Source: a virus
Reading direction: 5' to 3' (one strand)
UHGV virus genome: UHGV-0060500
DNA: 52,459 nucleotides
In this document: in pieces, positions 3,319 to 52,459 of the stretch
How the letters are laid out: each line of letters opens with the position of its first letter
How positions within the stretch are numbered: position 1 is the stretch's first letter
The notes under the pieces: model-generated
Database searches by the model: none
Told to the model about the DNA's origin: nothing
What the model saw: only the letters and a program-made list of their open reading frames with translations
Translations under genes and position numbers: made by a program

Positions 3319-3908
3319 AATTCTAACCCCGTTTCACCGTTAAGTTTTTCGATCTCAAATACTGGTTTATCCGGTAACAGTCCGTTATTTTTCCGGTATT
3401 CATTCAGGCGGCTGTCAAAATCAAACGCGAGATCATTAGCGTGACCAAAGCGACCAGGTTTAAACAGTGAGTAAAAATTAAGGCCGTGTTTATTGGTATC
3501 TATGCAAAGCGTTTCATCCAGCACCATTAAACGCAGCGTGCGCGAAAGGTAATTCCACGGAATACCAGTTTCCGCGCTAATATCTCTCATTCGCTTTCTA
3601 ACGTTGTAGTCAGTAAATAACGCGGCTACACGCTCGCGTCGTTGTTCGTATAAATATTTAATTCGATAGCCCAGCAAGCGGCGGCGCGGGCCAAAATATG
3701 TATACACCCGCTCAACCAGATTAGTGTCGATCAGGTGTTTAACTGTTTCCGGCAAGCATCCGGCTTCGTCGTATTCCGCTGATAATCCGGTTTTCTGGCG
3801 TAGCTGGTGCATTGTTGCGATGCCATCAAGTTCAAGGATATTGATAATTTTTGCTTCAAGTTCAATGCTCATTGTTTTTCGCCTCGTTTTAAGCGCGAAA
3901 ACAGCCAC
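3315..3908 (-). CDS. Hypothetical protein (197 aa), replication/nin region
   Basis: Long ORF immediately downstream of the helicase gene in the same operon. Confidence 0.5.
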   Translation of the reverse strand: MAVFALKTRRKTMSIELEAKIINILELDGIATMHQLRQKTGLSAEYDEAGCLPETVKHLIDTNLVERVYTYFGPRRRLLGYRIKYLYEQRRERVAALFTDYNVRKRMRDISAETGIPWNYLSRTLRLMVLDETLCIDTNKHGLNFYSLFKPGRFGHANDLAFDFDSRLNEYRKNNGLLPDKPVFEIEKLNGETGLEL

Positions 3909-44271: not shown

Positions 44272-44976
44272 ATGCGCAATATTCCGAGAGAAATGATTAT
44301 TGATTCCGTCGATGCCGGAGTCGGCGCGGTAATTGACTTGTTTGAATTAGACCTCACGCCCCTGGGTGGCGAGGTTATCCGCTTCCATTCCGGCGTGAAT
44401 GGCTATTACGGCCCGGTTATCTGGAAGGGGGTGGCTTACAACAGCTACCCTATCGAGGCCACTGGCTTCGAAATGAAAAACGAGGGTGTCTATTCACGCC
44501 CGCAAATGGTTGTAGCCAACATTGGCGGCCTAATCACCGGGATGAATAACGATTTCAACGACCTGCGAGGAATGAAAGTTACACGCCGCCAGGTGGAAGT
44601 AAAATACCTGGACGCCATCAACTTCCCCAACGGCAACCCGGATGCAGATCCGTCTATCGAGGCGGTGTCTTTTTACGTCGTTGAGGCGATGAGCGAAGAA
44701 ACAGCCGACCAGGTGCAATATGAGCTGTCAACGCCAATTGATGCTGACAAGGCGGTTATCCCAGGGCGCACAATCCTTGCTGACGTTTGCCAATGGCAAT
44801 ATCGCGGCGACGGTTGCGGATACAGTGGCGGCCCTGTAGCTACTGATAAAGACGAATCGACCAGCGATCCAAAGCTGGATAAATGCAGCCACCGCCTGAG
44901 CGGTTGCCGTTTACGTTTCCCGCGCCCGAATCCGTTACCAATTTCATGTTTCCCAGGATCGAGCAAGGTGGGTTGA
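44272..44976 (+). CDS. Minor tail protein L (lambda gpL homologue)
   Basis: 234 aa; CQWQYRGDGCGYSG cysteine cluster and overall similarity to lambda L as recalled. Confidence 0.85.
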   Translation: MRNIPREMIIDSVDAGVGAVIDLFELDLTPLGGEVIRFHSGVNGYYGPVIWKGVAYNSYPIEATGFEMKNEGVYSRPQMVVANIGGLITGMNNDFNDLRGMKVTRRQVEVKYLDAINFPNGNPDADPSIEAVSFYVVEAMSEETADQVQYELSTPIDADKAVIPGRTILADVCQWQYRGDGCGYSGGPVATDKDESTSDPKLDKCSHRLSGCRLRFPRPNPLPISCFPGSSKVG

Positions 44977-44978
44977 TT

Positions 44979-45710
44979 ATGGCACTTGAAGATAAAATGA
45001 TTCGCTATGCAGCAGCCCACCCGCGCGAGGAAGTGTGCGGGCTGGTGATAGATAACGATTATTTTTACCCGTGCGCTAACGTGTCTGAAACGCCGCACAA
45101 CAGCTTTAAAATCTCGCCTGACGATTATATCAAAGCTGACGAATTGGGCGTTATAACAGCCGTTTTCCACTCTCACGTTGAAGATATTCCGGTATTGTCG
45201 GCACGGGATCGACAACAGCAGGTTATTTCCGGCCTGCCGTGGTTTTTATGTTCCGGTGGCATGGTGAGGAAATTCCGCCCGGTGGCGCACCTGTTAGGCC
45301 GTAAATTTGAACACGGGAAAACAGATTGCTACTCGCTTTTTCGTGACGCCTATCACCTTTGCGGCGTGGATCTGCCTGACTTTGAACGCCACGATGGGTG
45401 GTGGCTGCGTGGGGAAAACCTGTACATAAAAAACCTGCCATTGAACGGGTTTTTCATGGTTGATGCGCAAAGCATTCAGCCTGGTGACGTGATTATTCGC
45501 CAGCCGTTCAAGGGTGCTGACCCATGTCACGCGATGATTTACCTGGGCGATAACACTGTTTTGCATCATGACAATGCCGGACTGCTAAGCCGCCGCGAGC
45601 AAATGCGGCCCGCGTATGTTCGACAAACGCATTCAATATGGAGATCTGACAAATGCTCAAATTTAGATTTACGGGCAATCTTCGAAGATATTACGGCAAA
45701 GTGTGTTTAA
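44979..45710 (+). CDS. Tail assembly protein K (JAB/MPN plus NlpC/P60 domains)
   Basis: JAMM motif HSHVEDIPVLSARD; NlpC/P60-type Cys in DCYSLFRDAYHLCG; start Met after the L stop. Confidence 0.85.
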   Translation: MALEDKMIRYAAAHPREEVCGLVIDNDYFYPCANVSETPHNSFKISPDDYIKADELGVITAVFHSHVEDIPVLSARDRQQQVISGLPWFLCSGGMVRKFRPVAHLLGRKFEHGKTDCYSLFRDAYHLCGVDLPDFERHDGWWLRGENLYIKNLPLNGFFMVDAQSIQPGDVIIRQPFKGADPCHAMIYLGDNTVLHHDNAGLLSRREQMRPAYVRQTHSIWRSDKCSNLDLRAIFEDITAKCV

Positions 45711-46183
45711 ACGTTGATACGCCAGCACAAGGACTTAGCCTATTGACCGCGCAGAATCAGGAGTTCAAGAAGGCTTTTTTAAATACACCTTTGCGGTTAC
45801 GGATTGCCGGGAAAGATTATAACGAAAAGACGGCCCCGGCAGCGGTTAATAGTAAATACCCTGACGGAACTACCGTCATTATTGCGCCAGTAGTTGAAGG
45901 CGGTATTGCTGGGATTGGTGTTGTAGGCTGGATCCTGATTGGTGTTTCGGTGGTTAGCGTTGCGTTCTCAATCTTTATGTCCCGCAACATGAAGATAAAA
46001 ACATCGGCAGAAAGCGCACAAGATAACACCATAACGAACAACACCTACACCAGCATTGAAAACAAGGTGGGCCAGGGTAGACCAGTGCCAATACTATTAG
46101 GTGAAATGAAAATAGGTTCAAACGTCGGATCGTTAGGCATAGACACAAGCAACAATAGAGACGCCTTAGACGTTGTAAGTTAA
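45653..46183 (+). CDS. Tail assembly protein I-like
   Basis: 176 aa between K and J, hydrophobic central segment; overlaps the K 3' end as in lambda. Confidence 0.6.
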   Translation: MLKFRFTGNLRRYYGKVCLNVDTPAQGLSLLTAQNQEFKKAFLNTPLRLRIAGKDYNEKTAPAAVNSKYPDGTTVIIAPVVEGGIAGIGVVGWILIGVSVVSVAFSIFMSRNMKIKTSAESAQDNTITNNTYTSIENKVGQGRPVPILLGEMKIGSNVGSLGIDTSNNRDALDVVS

Positions 46184-46196
46184 CAGGAGAAAAACC

Positions 46197-49100
46197 ATGA
46201 GTAGCGGCGGCGGCAAAGCCAAAACACCAACATTATTGAACGATAACCTGTATCACAAACAGTTTTATCGTGTTTTAGATATTCTCAGCGAAGGGCCGAT
46301 ATACGGTCCGGTAAACCAGAAAGCGCCATTGAATGACGTGATGCTTAATGACACTCCTGTTACTGACGCAAACGGGAATACATCAATTCCGGGGATTAGT
46401 ATAGCCTGGCGCAACGGCACGGCTGACCAATCGCCGATTAATGGTTTTAACGCCATTGAGTCAACCGTTATTGTCAACGCAAAGGTAACTCACGACACAC
46501 CAATAATCAGGACTGTTTCAGATCCAAACGTTACCCGCGTCAGGTTGAATCTTGGTGTTGATGCTCTCGTTCAGTCAGATGAAAAGGGCAATCAATATAA
46601 TACATCCGTCATGTTGATGGTTGATGTTAAACCGTCATCATCTTCTACGTGGTCGCTGATTAAAGACATACACATTGGCCCTGGTAAACAAAGCGGTGAA
46701 TACCTGGAAGCTCACATCATTAAAGCGCCGGATGAAAAACCGTTTGATATTCGCGTTCGTCGCATAACACCAGACAGCAACGGCGATCTATTGCGGAATG
46801 ATACGCGGTGGAGTAGTTACAGCGAAATAATAGATGATAATCTGTCTTATCCTCATACCGCTGTAGCTGGCGCCGTAATTGACCATGATCAGTATACTGA
46901 TACGCCTACCCGCACCTATCACCTTCGCGGCCTGATTGTTGATGTGCCTGACAACTACAACCCTGAAACGCGCACATATTCAGGTTTATGGCTTGGTGGA
47001 TTTAAAAAGGCGTATACCAATAACCCTGCATGGCTTTTCCGGTATCTGGTTAAAAACGAGCGCTTTGGACTTGCTCGACATGCTGGTTACATTGATGTTG
47101 ATGATGGCGCTTTGTACGTGCTTTCTCAATACTGCGATCAGTTGGTTGATGATGGCTATGGTGGCCTTGAACCTCGCATGACGCTTAACGCTTACATTAC
47201 GGAGCAAATGAGCGCCCGCGACCTACTGGATAACATCGCAGGTATGTTCCGTGGTATCGCGTTATGGGACGGACAACGTCTTACCGTGATGATTGATGCG
47301 CCACAAGATCCAATCGCCACCATCACAAATGCAAACGTCGTTGATGGCGCGTTTACTCGTTCAAGTATCGCACGCGCAGAATGCTACAACGCCGTGATCG
47401 TATCCTGGACTGACCCTGAAAACGGCTGGGAGCAATCAAAAGAATATGTCGCAGATGATAAACTAATCGCCCGTGATGGTTATAACGAAACCACGTTGGA
47501 GGCGTTCGGTTGCACTTCACGCGGGCAAGCGCACCGCGCTGGTAAATGGCTGATCGAAACAGCGAAACGCGAGCCGTCAAAATTCACATTTAAAATGGCC
47601 CGTGACGCCATTCACTTTACGCCGGGGGATATAATCGAGATCCTCGATAATAATCGCGCAGGCGCTCGTTTAGGCGGTCGCATCGTGGCGAACAATGGCA
47701 GAGCGATCACGGTCGACAAGGTTGATTCTGAATATATCGCGGCTGGCGACACCATCAGCTTACTTGATAGCGATGGTAAATTTAAAAAACACCAGATCAT
47801 CGGAGTTAACGGGAACATTATCACCCTTGCAGCCGCCCCGGCGTGGATTCGTAACGGCACTGTTTTTGCTGTATCAACCAACGCAGCAAAACCCGTTTTA
47901 TGTCGAATCACCAGTGTAGCAGAAACAGAAAATAACAGCGTATACACCATCGAGGCCGCACAGCATGATCCACATAAGCAGGCCGTAGTCGATAATGGCG
48001 CAATCTTCGAGATCAATAACGACACGCTTAATCACTTCCGCGTGCCGAACATTGAAAATCTGAAGGTGTTAAACGTTGGATCTGAAACGGTTCAATGTCG
48101 CGCAACATGGGAAACACAGACGACAACGCGTCGCCTGACCTTTGAGATTCGCGTGTATAACGCCGAAGGCGCTGTAGTTAAAAGCTACGAAACCACGAAT
48201 TACAGTTATGATTTTTATGGCATTGATGCTGGCAACTACTCATTAGGCATTCGTGGCAGAAATGACACGGGCATGAAGGGTGCGGAAAGCATTGTCGATC
48301 TGGTTATTGGCGCACCAGCGGCCCCAGTTGGCGTTAATTGGGTTCCCGGTGTATTCCAGGCTACAGTTTACCCGATCAGCAGAACAACGCTCACCACTGA
48401 TACCAGTTACGAGTTTTATTACTCAGGTGAAACGCAGATCACTGATCCGGCATCAATAACCACTAAAGCACAATATACCGGGCGTGGTCATCAGTGGACG
48501 TTTGGCGGCATGAATACAGGTCACACATATTACGTTTATGTGCGCGCGCGTAACGCTTTTGGTGTGTCTGACTTTGTGGAAGCGTCAGGTAAGCCAACAG
48601 AAAACTTTGATGAAATTACCGATTACGTCACCAAAGACGTAATGAATTCCAAACAATTTAAAGAAATGGTTGGTGACATTAAAGATCTAGGCGACCGCAC
48701 TGATCTTATCGAAAGCGCTACGAATGACCTTAAAACTGCTACTGACAACCTCAAAACTGCAACTGATAATCTGACCAACATAACTGACGATTTAAGGACT
48801 GAAACTGACAACCTAACCATAGAAACAGGATCAATAAAAGCTGATACTGATACGCTCAAAAAAGAAACGGAAGATCTTTATAAAAAAGTTAAGGAAAACG
48901 CCGATGATATTGGACAGCATGAGTCGAGAATCGACTCGCTGGAGGTGTCTAGCGAAAAAGTTGGCAGCGAACTGGCGCAAGCAAAAGCAAGTCTGCAAAA
49001 CGCCTCACTTGCTCTTATTAATAACTCGCTTGCACAGACTAACACTCGCGTAACTCTTACCGCTCAGTACAAGAAAGGCAGGACAGAGACGAAAGCGGAA

Positions 49101-51167
49101 ATTGACCGCATTGACAACGTTATCGCTGAAGAGAAAAAAGCGACAGCGGAATCACTGGAAACCATCACGGCAGAAATGAATGTGATGGACACAAACCTTA
49201 AAGGTCAGATCTCTAATGTGCAACGCGCAGTAGCTGACGAGGCCAGCGCCCGCGCTGAAGCTATTAACGGTGTAAATGCCTCAATAAGCAATCTTGACAA
49301 GAAAACTGACGCCAGCGTAAACCGTCTTGATCAGGCAATTGCAGACGAAACAAGTGCGCGTACTCAGGCTATCAGCGACGTGAACGCAAGTATCTCAACA
49401 CTTGACAAGAAAACTGACGCCAGCGTTAAGCGCCTCGATAATGCAATATCAGATGAAACGCAGGCAAGAAGCGACGCAATAACAGTGGTTAAAGCTGATT
49501 TAACAACGCTTGAAAATAACACAAATGCCAGTGTTAGCCGTCTTGATCAAGCTATCGCTGATGAATCAAGCGCACGTGCTCAGGCGATATCAGGTATCAG
49601 CGCGACGCTTGGCGGCGTTAAAAGTGAGGTTGATAAAAACAGCGACGAGATAGATCAGGCGAAAGCAAGTCTGCAAAACGCATCTCTGGCGCTTATTAAT
49701 AACTCAATGGCGCAAAGCAAGATGAGCACTGTTATTGAGGCGAAATACAGGAAAGGACAAACAAAAACAAAAGCGGAAATAGCAAGGGTAGACACAGCAA
49801 TCGCAGATGAGGCGAGCGCACGCGCAGAAGCTATTAGCAACGTTAACGCCAGCGTCAGTAGTCTTGAAAGCAAAACCGACGCGAGCGTTTCCCGTCTTGA
49901 TAAAGCAATCGCAGATGAGGCGAGCGCACGCGCAGAAGCTATTAGCGGGGTTAATGCGTCAATTTCCACGCTCGATAGCAAGGTGACAAGCAACGTAACC
50001 AGGATGGATAAAGCGATCGCAGATGAGAAGAATGCACGCACTGACGCAATCAGCAGCCTTAACTCATCGCTTACCAGTACGATTAATTCGAAAGTATCCG
50101 AAGTGTCAACTGCACTTTCTACGCATGAAACATCAAGCGCGGAAAAATTTGGCCAGATCTCGGCATCTTTCGACGATGTAAACTCAAGCATCACGGAATG
50201 GTCACAGGCTATGGCAACGGCAGACGAGGCATTGTCAACCAGAATCGACCAGTTGAAAGTAACTATTAACGGAAACACAACGGCGATAGAAACGACATCA
50301 AAAGCACTGACTGACTTCAAAGGTAACGTTGATGCGTCATATTCAATTAAGATTGCCACTGATAAAAACGGTATGAAATACGCTACAGGAATGTCGCTCG
50401 GCCTTACTGGTAGCGGGACTAACGTTCAATCGCAGTGTATTTTCCTCGTTGACCGTTTCGTGCTTATGACTGCGGCAGGTGGCTCCTATCAGACCCCGTT
50501 CTATGTTACTAACGGTGCTTGCTACATCCGTGATGCGTGGATCAGAGACGCATCAATCACTACCGCGAAGATTGCGCAGCAAATTCAGTCAACCAACTAT
50601 AAAGCTGGTTCGGCTGGCTGGATGCTAAATAAAAACGGCAATGCGGAGTTCAACAACGTCACTGTACGCGGTACGGTGTACGCAACATCTGGTAAATTCA
50701 CTGGTGAGATTCAGGCCACAAGCGGGAAGTTTAAAGGTACAGTAGAGGCAAAGTCATTTGTCGGTGACGTTGCTAACATGGGGGTTGGTCCAGATCGAGT
50801 GCTTGGGCATAACGGAAGTTATAGCGCAACCATCACATATAAAGACAGCACGGATAATGCATTGACGAAATCAGTTATGCTTATGGCGACTATTTCATTA
50901 ATGTCTGGTGAATATAGATCCACTTATAACGTAACGTTTAGTTGCGGAGATAAAAACAAAACAATTTCATATTACGTGCCTTATGGTGGATGCACATTAA
51001 CAGTGCAATGCGCTTTTTCTGGTTTAAAAGCATCAGATATTATCGGGAAAATATATTGTCCTCAAACATCATCATCTGAAGGATACGCATATTGTACCGC
51101 GTTGTATTCTCCAACAATGATAGTAGCAAGAGGCACCGGATCATTTAGAACATCAACGACAGCATAA
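46197..51167 (+). CDS. Host specificity protein J (central tail fibre / tip attachment protein)
   Basis: 1656 aa; N-terminal two thirds typical of lambda J-like proteins, followed by a long coiled-coil repeat region and a C-terminal receptor-binding region. Confidence 0.85.
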   Translation: MSSGGGKAKTPTLLNDNLYHKQFYRVLDILSEGPIYGPVNQKAPLNDVMLNDTPVTDANGNTSIPGISIAWRNGTADQSPINGFNAIESTVIVNAKVTHDTPIIRTVSDPNVTRVRLNLGVDALVQSDEKGNQYNTSVMLMVDVKPSSSSTWSLIKDIHIGPGKQSGEYLEAHIIKAPDEKPFDIRVRRITPDSNGDLLRNDTRWSSYSEIIDDNLSYPHTAVAGAVIDHDQYTDTPTRTYHLRGLIVDVPDNYNPETRTYSGLWLGGFKKAYTNNPAWLFRYLVKNERFGLARHAGYIDVDDGALYVLSQYCDQLVDDGYGGLEPRMTLNAYITEQMSARDLLDNIAGMFRGIALWDGQRLTVMIDAPQDPIATITNANVVDGAFTRSSIARAECYNAVIVSWTDPENGWEQSKEYVADDKLIARDGYNETTLEAFGCTSRGQAHRAGKWLIETAKREPSKFTFKMARDAIHFTPGDIIEILDNNRAGARLGGRIVANNGRAITVDKVDSEYIAAGDTISLLDSDGKFKKHQIIGVNGNIITLAAAPAWIRNGTVFAVSTNAAKPVLCRITSVAETENNSVYTIEAAQHDPHKQAVVDNGAIFEINNDTLNHFRVPNIENLKVLNVGSETVQCRATWETQTTTRRLTFEIRVYNAEGAVVKSYETTNYSYDFYGIDAGNYSLGIRGRNDTGMKGAESIVDLVIGAPAAPVGVNWVPGVFQATVYPISRTTLTTDTSYEFYYSGETQITDPASITTKAQYTGRGHQWTFGGMNTGHTYYVYVRARNAFGVSDFVEASGKPTENFDEITDYVTKDVMNSKQFKEMVGDIKDLGDRTDLIESATNDLKTATDNLKTATDNLTNITDDLRTETDNLTIETGSIKADTDTLKKETEDLYKKVKENADDIGQHESRIDSLEVSSEKVGSELAQAKASLQNASLALINNSLAQTNTRVTLTAQYKKGRTETKAEIDRIDNVIAEEKKATAESLETITAEMNVMDTNLKGQISNVQRAVADEASARAEAINGVNASISNLDKKTDASVNRLDQAIADETSARTQAISDVNASISTLDKKTDASVKRLDNAISDETQARSDAITVVKADLTTLENNTNASVSRLDQAIADESSARAQAISGISATLGGVKSEVDKNSDEIDQAKASLQNASLALINNSMAQSKMSTVIEAKYRKGQTKTKAEIARVDTAIADEASARAEAISNVNASVSSLESKTDASVSRLDKAIADEASARAEAISGVNASISTLDSKVTSNVTRMDKAIADEKNARTDAISSLNSSLTSTINSKVSEVSTALSTHETSSAEKFGQISASFDDVNSSITEWSQAMATADEALSTRIDQLKVTINGNTTAIETTSKALTDFKGNVDASYSIKIATDKNGMKYATGMSLGLTGSGTNVQSQCIFLVDRFVLMTAAGGSYQTPFYVTNGACYIRDAWIRDASITTAKIAQQIQSTNYKAGSAGWMLNKNGNAEFNNVTVRGTVYATSGKFTGEIQATSGKFKGTVEAKSFVGDVANMGVGPDRVLGHNGSYSATITYKDSTDNALTKSVMLMATISLMSGEYRSTYNVTFSCGDKNKTISYYVPYGGCTLTVQCAFSGLKASDIIGKIYCPQTSSSEGYAYCTALYSPTMIVARGTGSFRTSTTA
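48960..50060 (+). repeat. Nested in-frame repeats within J: duplicated block of about 690 bp (starting near 48963 and 49661) containing repeats of a 34 aa unit
   Basis: Repeated peptide DASV.RLD.AIADE.SARA.AIS.VNASIS.LD.KT and duplicated QAKASLQNASLALINNS...KAEI segments visible in the translation. Confidence 0.7.
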
Positions 51168-51207: not shown

Positions 51208-51453
51208 TTATTTTTTACACCCATCATTTACACCAGAAAAATGGATAGGTAAATTACATTCACTGTCAATAATTTTACCTTGTAGTTGTTTTTCTTTCCA
51301 TGAGTCAGTATTGAAATAACTCGAACGTTGGTTATCAAGGCCAGTATCACCATATTGAGCAGTGCCAGCATCACTCTTATCTGTCGAATTTACAGAAGCA
51401 AAAGCACCAAAAGACAGAGCTGATAAGATGCAAGCAACAATTAGTTTTTTCAT
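51208..51453 (-). CDS. Small secreted protein (about 81 aa, signal peptide), moron downstream of J
   Basis: MKKLIVACILSALSFGAFA signal peptide; SD AAGGTGA; longer ORF-track start to 51510 unlikely. Confidence 0.5.
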   Translation of the reverse strand: MKKLIVACILSALSFGAFASVNSTDKSDAGTAQYGDTGLDNQRSSYFNTDSWKEKQLQGKIIDSECNLPIHFSGVNDGCKK

Positions 51454-51651
51454 TGTATTCACCTTACTGTTTGTTTTACTGTCATTTGTTGTTCGTGATG
51501 ATCCACCCATCCGATGAGCAAATCACCGCAGAAGCTATCATTTCGTATGTTGATATAGATCAAAAAAATACATTATGTATAAGCCCAAAGTGTAACACAG
51601 ATCACAAAATGGTAGAATTGTTTAGTTAATTAACAAAACGGAGTTATTGCG

Positions 51652-52459
51652 ATGATTTACACAACAGGCACTATAGCTGTTAGCGGAAACACAGTTACCG
51701 GGGCAGGGACTGAATTCAACGCCGCATTATCTCTGATCAGAGTGGGTTGCACTCTTATTGCCATTAGCGATCCGGTGCAGATTTTTTCAATCACAAAGGT
51801 AAAAAGCGCAACAAGTTTGTCGGTAACTCCTGCGGCAAGTCCGGCTATTCCGGCTGGAACTAAATTTAGCATCCTGCTTTCAGATTCGATCTCTGTGGAT
51901 GGTCTTGCTCAGGATGTTGCCGAAACACTGCGTTACTACCAGGGCAAAGAATCAGAAATAGCTGACGCTGTGGAGTTTTTCAGCGACAACAAAGATGTGA
52001 TTTCAGCATCAAAATTAGCATTAGCATCAGCTACCACTGCAACCAATGCGGCAACAACAGCGACAAGCGCCGCCGATTCAGCTAAGACATACAGAGACGA
52101 AGCCCACGAATACGCCAATCAGACCGCACAGCCTTACGCGTATGTTTTGCAACCGCTGCCGGACGTATGGATACCGTTTAACGATTCTCTCGATATGATC
52201 ACGGGCTACGGCCCTGGTACTAAAAAAGTAACCATTAATGGGGAAGAAAAAACAATATCATCAGATAAAGTTGTTTCTTTCTCACGCGCAAGCACTGCTA
52301 CTTACATTAACAAATCAGGTGTTTTAACTGTGGCTGGTATTAATGAGCCACGTTTTGAACGCGAAGGATTACTGATTGAGGGGACGCGCACAAACCTGTT
52401 AATAAACAGTACAGACCCTTCGAAGTGGAATAAGTCAACTTCACTGGACGTTACAGAAA
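51652..52459 (+). CDS. Putative tail fibre protein (5' part; continues beyond window)
   Basis: Open frame from the ATG at 51652 (SD AACGGAG) to the window end with no stop; Ala/Thr/Ser-rich repeats typical of fibre shafts; location after J. Confidence 0.5.
   Translation, partial: MIYTTGTIAVSGNTVTGAGTEFNAALSLIRVGCTLIAISDPVQIFSITKVKSATSLSVTPAASPAIPAGTKFSILLSDSISVDGLAQDVAETLRYYQGKESEIADAVEFFSDNKDVISASKLALASATTATNAATTATSAADSAKTYRDEAHEYANQTAQPYAYVLQPLPDVWIPFNDSLDMITGYGPGTKKVTINGEEKTISSDKVVSFSRASTATYINKSGVLTVAGINEPRFEREGLLIEGTRTNLLINSTDPSKWNKSTSLDVTE

Follow-up and report, generated by a model that had tools for sequence, protein, structure and literature searches.

A modular, length-variable repeat region in the J-like central tail fibre of the viral genome UHGV-0060500 and its probable identity as an alpha-helical shaft

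Architecture of the repeat region in J

The viral genome UHGV-0060500, a stretch of 52,459 nucleotides (nt) referred to here as the window, carries at 46197-51167 (+) a gene that encodes a lambda-J-like central tail fibre. A list of open reading frames (ORFs) and their translations shows a single frame of 1656 amino acids (aa) that encloses the whole of an extensive repeat region, which occupies 548 aa (aa 815-1362) between the FNIII/Ig domains and the tail-tip prism with the receptor-binding domain. The segment is genuine, a spacer of variable length that belongs to a familiar kind, and we consider it highly probable that it is the greatly expanded, length-variable alpha-helical shaft of a trimeric J central tail fibre.

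The identification of the gene as J, already made in an earlier note on this stretch, was upheld by both its domain content and its position. The lambda-J set of Pfam domains was found in the order FNIII-A_GpJ, Phage-tail_3, Ig_J, Ig_J_second and Phage_Tail_Tip, all five above their gathering scores, with the first four lying within aa 88-811 and the last at aa 1363-1500. The protein matches phrog_31 of PHROGs ('central tail fiber J') with 1095 bits, the solved lambda gpJ (8iyk_J) matches aa 1-851 with an E value of 8e-187 and the tail-tip part with an E value of 3e-7, and an identical protein is named 'phage tail tip fiber protein' in RefSeq (WP_000094326.1). The gene lies downstream of homologues of the tail-tip genes L, K (C40 peptidase) and I at 44272-44976, 44883-45710 and 45653-46183, an order that agrees with the RefSeq annotation of the identical locus. 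Against the NCBIfam model NF049904 (lambda_TipJ) the protein scored 724.7 bits and did not reach the curated cut-off of 1950, and we therefore regard it as a relative of lambda J rather than its equivalog.

The shaft is repetitive at three levels, namely a zone of 7-aa repeats, two super-blocks that each open with a 43-aa head, and 36-aa units. The first of these levels, which was absent from the earlier note, is the heptad zone at 48639-48968 (+; aa 815-924), where 7/14-aa repeats of the type TDNLxxx were recognized by TRF and by a period of 3.5, and within which TRF reports a 21-nt array at 48717-48766. The head-unit array follows at 48969-50096, bearing out the repeat region previously placed at 48960-50060. 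Head module A (aa 925-967: ELAQAKASLQNASLALINNSLAQTNTRVTLTAQYKKGRTETKA) lies at 48969-49097 (+) and is followed by block A (49095-49634, +), five units that start at 49095, 49203, 49311, 49419 and 49527. Head module B (aa 1151-1193) lies at 49647-49775 (+) and opens block B (49773-50096, +), whose three units start at 49773, 49881 and 49989 and which is the site of copy-number polymorphism. Two copies of a 42-nt perfect direct repeat, apparent from the unit sequences, lie in this block at 49797-49838 and 49905-49946 (+). The shaft ends in a non-repeated segment at 50097-50282 (+; aa 1301-1362) that has the same length in all relatives and aligns with the shaft of the F2-pyocin central fibre.

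The units were located with a hidden Markov model (HMM) of the unit consensus, ASVSRLDQAIADETSARAQAISGVNASISTLEKKTD. In block A (aa 967-1146) the first unit is degenerate (7 bits) and the other four score 60-68 bits, and the three units of block B (aa 1193-1300) score 58-66 bits. A repeat finder independently returned families of direct repeats with a spacing of 108 nt between 49221 and 50065. Pairs of units share 44-66% nt identity, compared with 27 ± 4% and a maximum of 43% for random in-frame 108-nt pairs from the same gene, which confirms that the repeats are far beyond chance. Thus the eight units proposed earlier are present, as five plus three, although the unit measures 36 aa (108 nt) and not 34 aa. 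The two heads, for which the head HMM gives 92 and 97 bits (consensus ELAQAKASLQNASLALINNS.AQ...YKKG.T.TKA), are 64% identical in aa and 67% identical in nt, and a 59-nt repeat pair at 48978 and 49656, 83% identical, is 678 nt (226 aa) apart. The duplicated block of about 690 bp described earlier therefore exists as two blocks, with an offset of 678 nt, and the 67% nt identity of the heads makes it an old, diverged duplication rather than a recent copy.

No Pfam, NCBIfam or PHROGs family matches aa 815-1362, where we found just sub-threshold matches to generic coiled coils such as SMC. A search for homologous proteins with the repeat block yielded at least 6 hits, its capped list of candidates being taken up by low-complexity words. 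The J proteins of ES18-type phages align only before and after the repeat region and contain no units, from which it follows that the region is an expansion of the short shaft of a simpler J. As a candidate origin of the head we considered a degenerate copy of the shaft-prism junction; hhalign returned the expected register, but with a probability of 3% and P 0.014, and the idea was not accepted.

Quantised length variation among alleles and relatives

The earlier note had proposed that related prophages be compared for repeat number, and this comparison uncovered a near-isogenic series of alleles with two, three, four and five units in block B. The J protein of strain M1/5, a complete Escherichia coli genome, is the window protein, whereas the J of strain GN04592 carries one additional block-B unit (1692 aa) and that of strain LP-26-E1-261 carries two (1728 aa), with one or two other substitutions in 5 kb. 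In both of these strains the surplus units repeat the first block-B unit perfectly over its 108 nt. Three IMG/VR contigs (L023, L028 and L029) each differ from the window by one 108-nt indel, which in every case affects the same site, J nt 3600-3707, and by 0-3 mismatches in roughly 5 kb. The full series comprises two units (L028, L029), three (the window), four (GN04592, L023) and five (LP-26-E1-261), with the same receptor-binding domain carried by all. A further contig, L031 (IMG/VR UViG 3300045988_084845), has lost 63 nt (three heptads) from the heptad zone and 354 nt from the last block-A unit into block B, so that a single super-block is left in front of the same receptor-binding end as in the window. 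This fusion is direct evidence of recombination between blocks A and B, and together with the clean 108-nt indels it demonstrates that the array is a recombination hotspot, as had been suspected.

Variation in whole steps extends across the wider group. Among 43 distinct complete J proteins, which range from 1350 to 1914 aa, the number of units is 4-15 and the number of heads one or two. The heptad zone has lengths of 99, 106, 113, 120, 127, 141 and 155 aa, which are equal modulo 7 in 40 of 40 cases, and the distance from the last unit to the tail-tip domain is a constant 82-83 aa. The variation is therefore strictly quantised and keeps both the reading frame and the register of the coiled coil. 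Relative to mEp010, the ratio of nonsynonymous to synonymous substitution rates (dN/dS) is 0.13 for the units, 0.04 for head A and 0.05 for the hub, and values this low identify the repeat region as a constrained protein segment and not junk. A separate J lineage (P0018, P0019 and P0021; alignment A1, columns 500-560) has its own unit of about 32 aa, NGNKASINSLNQTxSDYQQATATQINGITATV, just before the tail-tip domain, and P0018 exceeds its close relatives by one copy, so that here, too, repeats have been gained or lost at this position, in a J lineage other than that of the window.

The earlier note had named collapsed or expanded repeats as the finding that would undo it. There are indeed signs of difficulty. 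Many database J entries are partial fragments that start within the repeats, a homologue search with the non-repeated end of J returned mostly partial proteins, and the IMG/VR contigs L027 and L039 terminate inside the repeats, all of which suggests a systematic assembly break point; moreover, collapse of perfect 108-nt copies would yield exactly the 3-unit allele. In the window allele itself, however, the longest perfect repeat measures 42 nt, so that this allele assembles unambiguously. It also recurs, with 100% aa identity and 99.9-100% nt identity over a 2.1-kb query, in five complete E. coli genomes that are independent of one another and in eight IMG/VR contigs, the frame is intact in every allele, and the repeat lengths are quantised and under purifying selection. 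The allele is therefore not an artefact, and we regard an assembly error in the array or in the copy number of the window as extremely improbable, even though the region does break short-read assemblies. The partial entries (P0003-P0049) comprise dozens of C-terminal J fragments that begin inside or just after the repeats, and contig L027 breaks off inside the 42-nt perfect repeat sequence; the repeats explain the frequent fragmentation of J in draft assemblies.

The same repeats bear on a 234-aa antisense ORF at 49655-50359 (-), the longest antisense ORF in J, which sits in a stop-free run of 256 codons. When the codons of J were shuffled synonymously, the antisense stop-free run averaged 187 ± 42 codons, and in 13% of shuffles it reached at least 235. 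The run lengthens by 36 codons with each added unit (256, 292 and 328), falls to 121-215 codons in diverged relatives, and lies across a stretch in which J is under strong purifying selection. A real overlapping gene is accordingly scarcely credible, and the ORF is a by-product of repeat composition, in agreement with its previous dismissal as spurious.

We compared the receptor-binding end of the window with those of phages of known receptor dependence, where mEp010, mEp013, mEp044 and mEp554 require LamB and mEp021 and mEp515 require OmpA (PMC11893012). The last 150 aa of the window protein are about 35% identical to those of the four LamB-dependent phages and unrelated to those of the two OmpA-dependent ones, and they are identical in strain FAH, whose repeat architecture differs. 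Users of LamB and users of OmpA both span 5 to 13 units. Since the same end occurs with different repeats and both classes cover the same range of units, receptor choice follows the C-terminal domain. Receptor type thus appears to be independent of repeat number, and if the repeats influence host range at all, they would do so by way of reach.

Fold of the shaft and alternative readings

The coiled-coil character attributed to the region in the earlier note agrees with several properties of the segment. Zero prolines occur in the 548 residues, and hydrophobicity has a period of 3.5 across the heptad zone and of 3.6 across the units, by which a 36-aa unit corresponds to exactly ten helical turns. 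AlphaFold2 predictions were made for the monomer, from 1 or 28 sequences. From the single sequence, a near-continuous helix was predicted over aa 819-1380, broken only at YKKGR (959-963) and YRKGQTK (1185-1191); both breaks fall inside the two heads, each of which has a Gly break. With the 28-sequence alignment, aa 1194-1352 were predicted as one helix followed by beta structure, with a predicted local distance difference test score (pLDDT) above 90 over about the first 130 residues of the helix and lower over the last 30 or so. A beta-prism in the unit region was absent from the prediction with the alignment, which gave helix alone, a result that is uninformative for a monomer. The segment also lies between FNIII-2 and the beta-prism, the same position as that of the helical shaft in lambda gpJ and F-type pyocin fibres. 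These data support the assignment of aa 815-1362 as the predicted alpha-helical shaft of a J-like fibre type, which, by analogy with the trimeric J homologues, would form a three-stranded parallel coiled coil in the assembled particle.

Such a shaft would be assembled from register-preserving modules, comprising 7-aa heptad steps, 36-aa ten-turn units and two super-blocks opened by heads. Because neighbouring 108-nt units have long identical stretches, whole units could be gained or lost by unequal homologous recombination or replication slippage between them, for which the 42-nt perfect direct repeat is a likely substrate, and each gain or loss would preserve the reading frame together with the phase of the coiled coil. 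An alpha helix rises 1.5 Å per residue, the textbook geometry on which our distances are based. On this scale we infer that each unit makes the shaft about 5.4 nm longer, setting the reach of the receptor-binding tip from the tail, and that the shaft of the window would be about 80 nm long if fully extended. Receptor specificity would be kept by the separate C-terminal domain. Quantised fibre length could offer an easy means of matching reach to the different layers of cell surfaces, and changes in length may have an effect on fitness.

Several points weigh against this reading. The 80-nm extended coiled coil is a prediction, and published micrographs of relatives give tails of about 130 nm with no fibre described. 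The two helix breaks could permit folding back. Short-read assemblies could collapse alleles with four or five perfect units and so make the 3-unit allele look more frequent than it is. The length of J shows no significant correlation with that of the side fibre (rho 0.31, p 0.28, n = 14). As to folding back, an antiparallel helix bundle formed at the two breaks is unlikely, because the lengths of the heptad zone (99-155 aa), block A (3-12 units) and block B (0-5 units) vary independently, and pairing between the segments could not persist.

We considered whether the Gly-kinked heads might be docking or hinge sites for side fibres or accessory tail proteins, with the units serving to space them. 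The predicted helix is interrupted solely within the heads, at the YKKGR and YRKGQTK motifs, head A is as constrained as the hub by its dN/dS of 0.04, and the head has been found only in this phage group. The F2 pyocin has its side fibres attached to the shaft where a Gly, G955, kinks it (PMC13455828), and the side-fibre protein encoded downstream of J has an N-terminal 100 aa that is almost invariant in all relatives while the C-termini differ. The number of heads, however, does not track the downstream fibre genes, since mEp021 has two heads and mEp515 one with the same genes downstream. The heads are basic around the kink, in contrast to the acidic pyocin kink, and the side-fibre N-terminus is unlike the PyoF13 type and is homologous to a depolymerase N-terminus. 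We judge a docking or hinge role of the heads to be unlikely.

A somewhat less remote, though still doubtful, alternative is that the shaft is a metastable store of energy and a conductor of signal that refolds to a beta-prism on receptor binding. The switch would be seeded by the first strands of the tail-tip domain, with each 36-aa unit supplying one beta-hairpin; gain or loss of a whole unit would disturb neither strand direction nor the phase of the coiled coil, and reach, stored energy and prism height would all depend on the number of copies. There are precedents in both related machines. In the central fibre of the F7 pyocin the entire 163-residue shaft converts to a beta-prism, with the initial strands of the following domain as the seed, and the tape measure is ejected, the switching strands carrying an SxSxxMxxLxS motif (bioRxiv 10.64898/2026.01.28.702463). 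In lambda gpJ, shaft residues 841-861 become beta-sheet upon LamB binding, releasing the FNIII gate (PMC11101478). A receptor signal must, moreover, somehow pass along a very long shaft to open the tip. Candidate seed strands are present after the shaft of the window: aa 1204-1482 align across the shaft-prism junction with residues 911-1185 of the F2-pyocin fibre 25vf (E 1.8e-29), the motif strands 1345 ALSTRIDQLKV and 1370 ALTDFKGNVDA face F2 strands 1049 and 1074, and AlphaFold2 predicts beta structure from aa 1368. The SxSxxMxxLxS motif occurs 15 times in block A and 13 times in block B, compared with 3.4 ± 1.8 in composition shuffles, a 4-fold enrichment obtained under a permissive definition and from non-independent copies. 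Within the units it is found by turns in reverse orientation and in forward orientation, at positions 1 and 16, and the heptad zone contains none.

The motif evidence for a switch is nevertheless open to objection. The definition is permissive on Ala/Ser-rich amphipathic repeats, where overlapping additional matches arise at positions 8 and 29 of the unit, and copies of one repeat do not count as independent observations. The monomer is predicted as helix alone with very high confidence, a switch of 548 residues would be more than three times the largest documented case, and the authors of the F7 study state that the extensive switch is not displayed by lambda and T5 (bioRxiv 10.64898/2026.01.28.702463). 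That each unit forms ten helical turns at rest and one beta-hairpin once triggered, with whole-unit changes tolerated in both states, is thus a tentative and rather improbable proposal. If it were true, the number of copies would adjust reach, stored energy and the distance over which the tail is drawn to the membrane, and the near-isogenic 2-, 3-, 4- and 5-unit prophages would be an allelic series relating the length of a fold-switching segment to infection.

Relation to known systems and genomic setting

Read as a length-variable helical shaft, the segment has counterparts of several kinds. The nearest are the J proteins encoded by mEpimmI phages (mEp010, mEp013, mEp021, mEp044, mEp515, mEp554 and MagusPhagus), which share the head-plus-unit architecture of the window. 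They were described as differing in size and as containing 'repeats of different length (positions 950-1,475)' that precede a conserved stretch and a variable terminus (PMC11893012), a pattern that the J of the window fits. That description does not extend to the size of the unit, a hierarchy, a register rule or population data for these proteins (PMC11893012), and neither the window allele, with five plus three units, nor its receptor-binding end matches any characterised phage. The present analysis adds the size and hierarchical arrangement of the units, the rule on register, the near-isogenic series of alleles and a connection with the shaft of J-like fibres.

The central fibres of F-type pyocins (F2 PyoF10, 25vf, and F7 CFP) likewise have their shaft after FNIII-2 and before the beta-prism, in the form of a three-stranded coiled coil with a Gly kink (PMC13455828; bioRxiv 10.64898/2026.01.28.702463). 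The F2 fibre is aligned by the last 160 aa of the window shaft together with the tail-tip domain, at the E value given above. The pyocin shaft, of about 160 residues, is not described as repetitive, binds side fibres at its acidic kink and undergoes a proven fold switch, whereas that of the window is some 548 residues long, modular and length-polymorphic, and is known from sequence and prediction. Lambda gpJ has the same domain order, with homology to aa 1-851 and 1349-1528 of the window protein, and its shaft, which connects the FNIII gate with the prism, is altered when the receptor is bound (PMC11101478). In lambda, however, the shaft is just a few dozen residues long and has no repeats.

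Outside these phages, in-frame tandem repeats also vary by intragenic recombination in the adenovirus fibre shaft, the stalks of trimeric autotransporter adhesins and the streptococcal M protein, and in each of these the repeat copy number sets the reach of a terminal binding domain. These proteins differ in fold and organism, and we claim no homology beyond the Ala/Ser-rich coiled-coil pattern. Unit-like repeats with periods of 18-40 aa were found in other large proteins, among them another J-like protein. One protein of 1834 aa with a YadA-like membrane anchor, a trimeric autotransporter adhesin (P0063), was matched by the 36-aa unit HMM over a stalk with a period of 18 aa, which suggests that the match reflects a generic sequence pattern of trimeric stalks. 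The head module was carried by only one 50%-identity cluster among 1.84 billion representatives, and a contig scan of species-representative genomes gave no confirmed relative of head A; we have found the module only in the mEp021-like phage group.

The population data thus describe, for a common group of gut coliphages, a central fibre that changes length in quantised steps while its receptor-binding tip is unchanged. They provide natural variants in the length of a shaft whose counterparts in related machines transmit or power the opening of the tail and, for phage engineering, point to positions at which a longer or shorter fibre would probably still have its frame and coiled-coil phase intact.

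The remainder of J consists of the hub, FNIII and Ig domains at 46197-48629 (+; aa 1-811), homologous to lambda gpJ 1-858; the Phage_Tail_Tip domain at 50283-50696 (+; aa 1363-1500; Pfam E 2.9e-40), a beta-prism central straight fibre whose predicted strands have their best Foldseek matches in lambda gpJ713 (8xcj and 8xck); and, delimited by comparison with relatives, the C-terminal variable receptor-binding region at 50697-51164 (+; aa 1501-1656). On sequence similarity we assign the window to an E. coli prophage of the mEp021-like (mEpimmI) coliphage group, since its structural genes share 86-88% DNA identity with mEp021-group phages over 67-91% of a 25-kb query and the N-terminal part of its J is 72-84% identical in protein sequence to theirs. 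The prophage is integrated beside ydaN/zntB. In several E. coli chromosomes (L001 9032-9101; L013 and L014) the right end of the prophage adjoins ydaN (ynaN) and zntB, which indicates an integration region that they share.

Between I and J, mEp515 (L005 1442-2008) and mEp021 (L009 2442-3008) carry a 567-nt gene, called a putative HNH endonuclease in the annotation of mEp021 and hypothetical in that of mEp515, that is absent from the window and the other relatives. Downstream of J, the side-fibre gene at 51652-52459 (+) runs off the end of the window. The first 100 or so aa of its product are nearly invariant in 15 relatives and match no Pfam family, although they are homologous to the N-terminus of the solved 'Depolymerase' chains 7vyv, 7vz3 and 7lzj (E 4e-28), and the C-terminal parts vary between head-spike-fibre and pyocin-knob/S74-peptidase types. 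Just past J, a small gene at 51208-51510 (-) encodes a protein that is hypothetical in RefSeq (WP_000734009.1) and annotated 'lipoprotein' in MagusPhagus, and which may be an Lpp-type superinfection-exclusion lipoprotein as described for mEpimmI phages.

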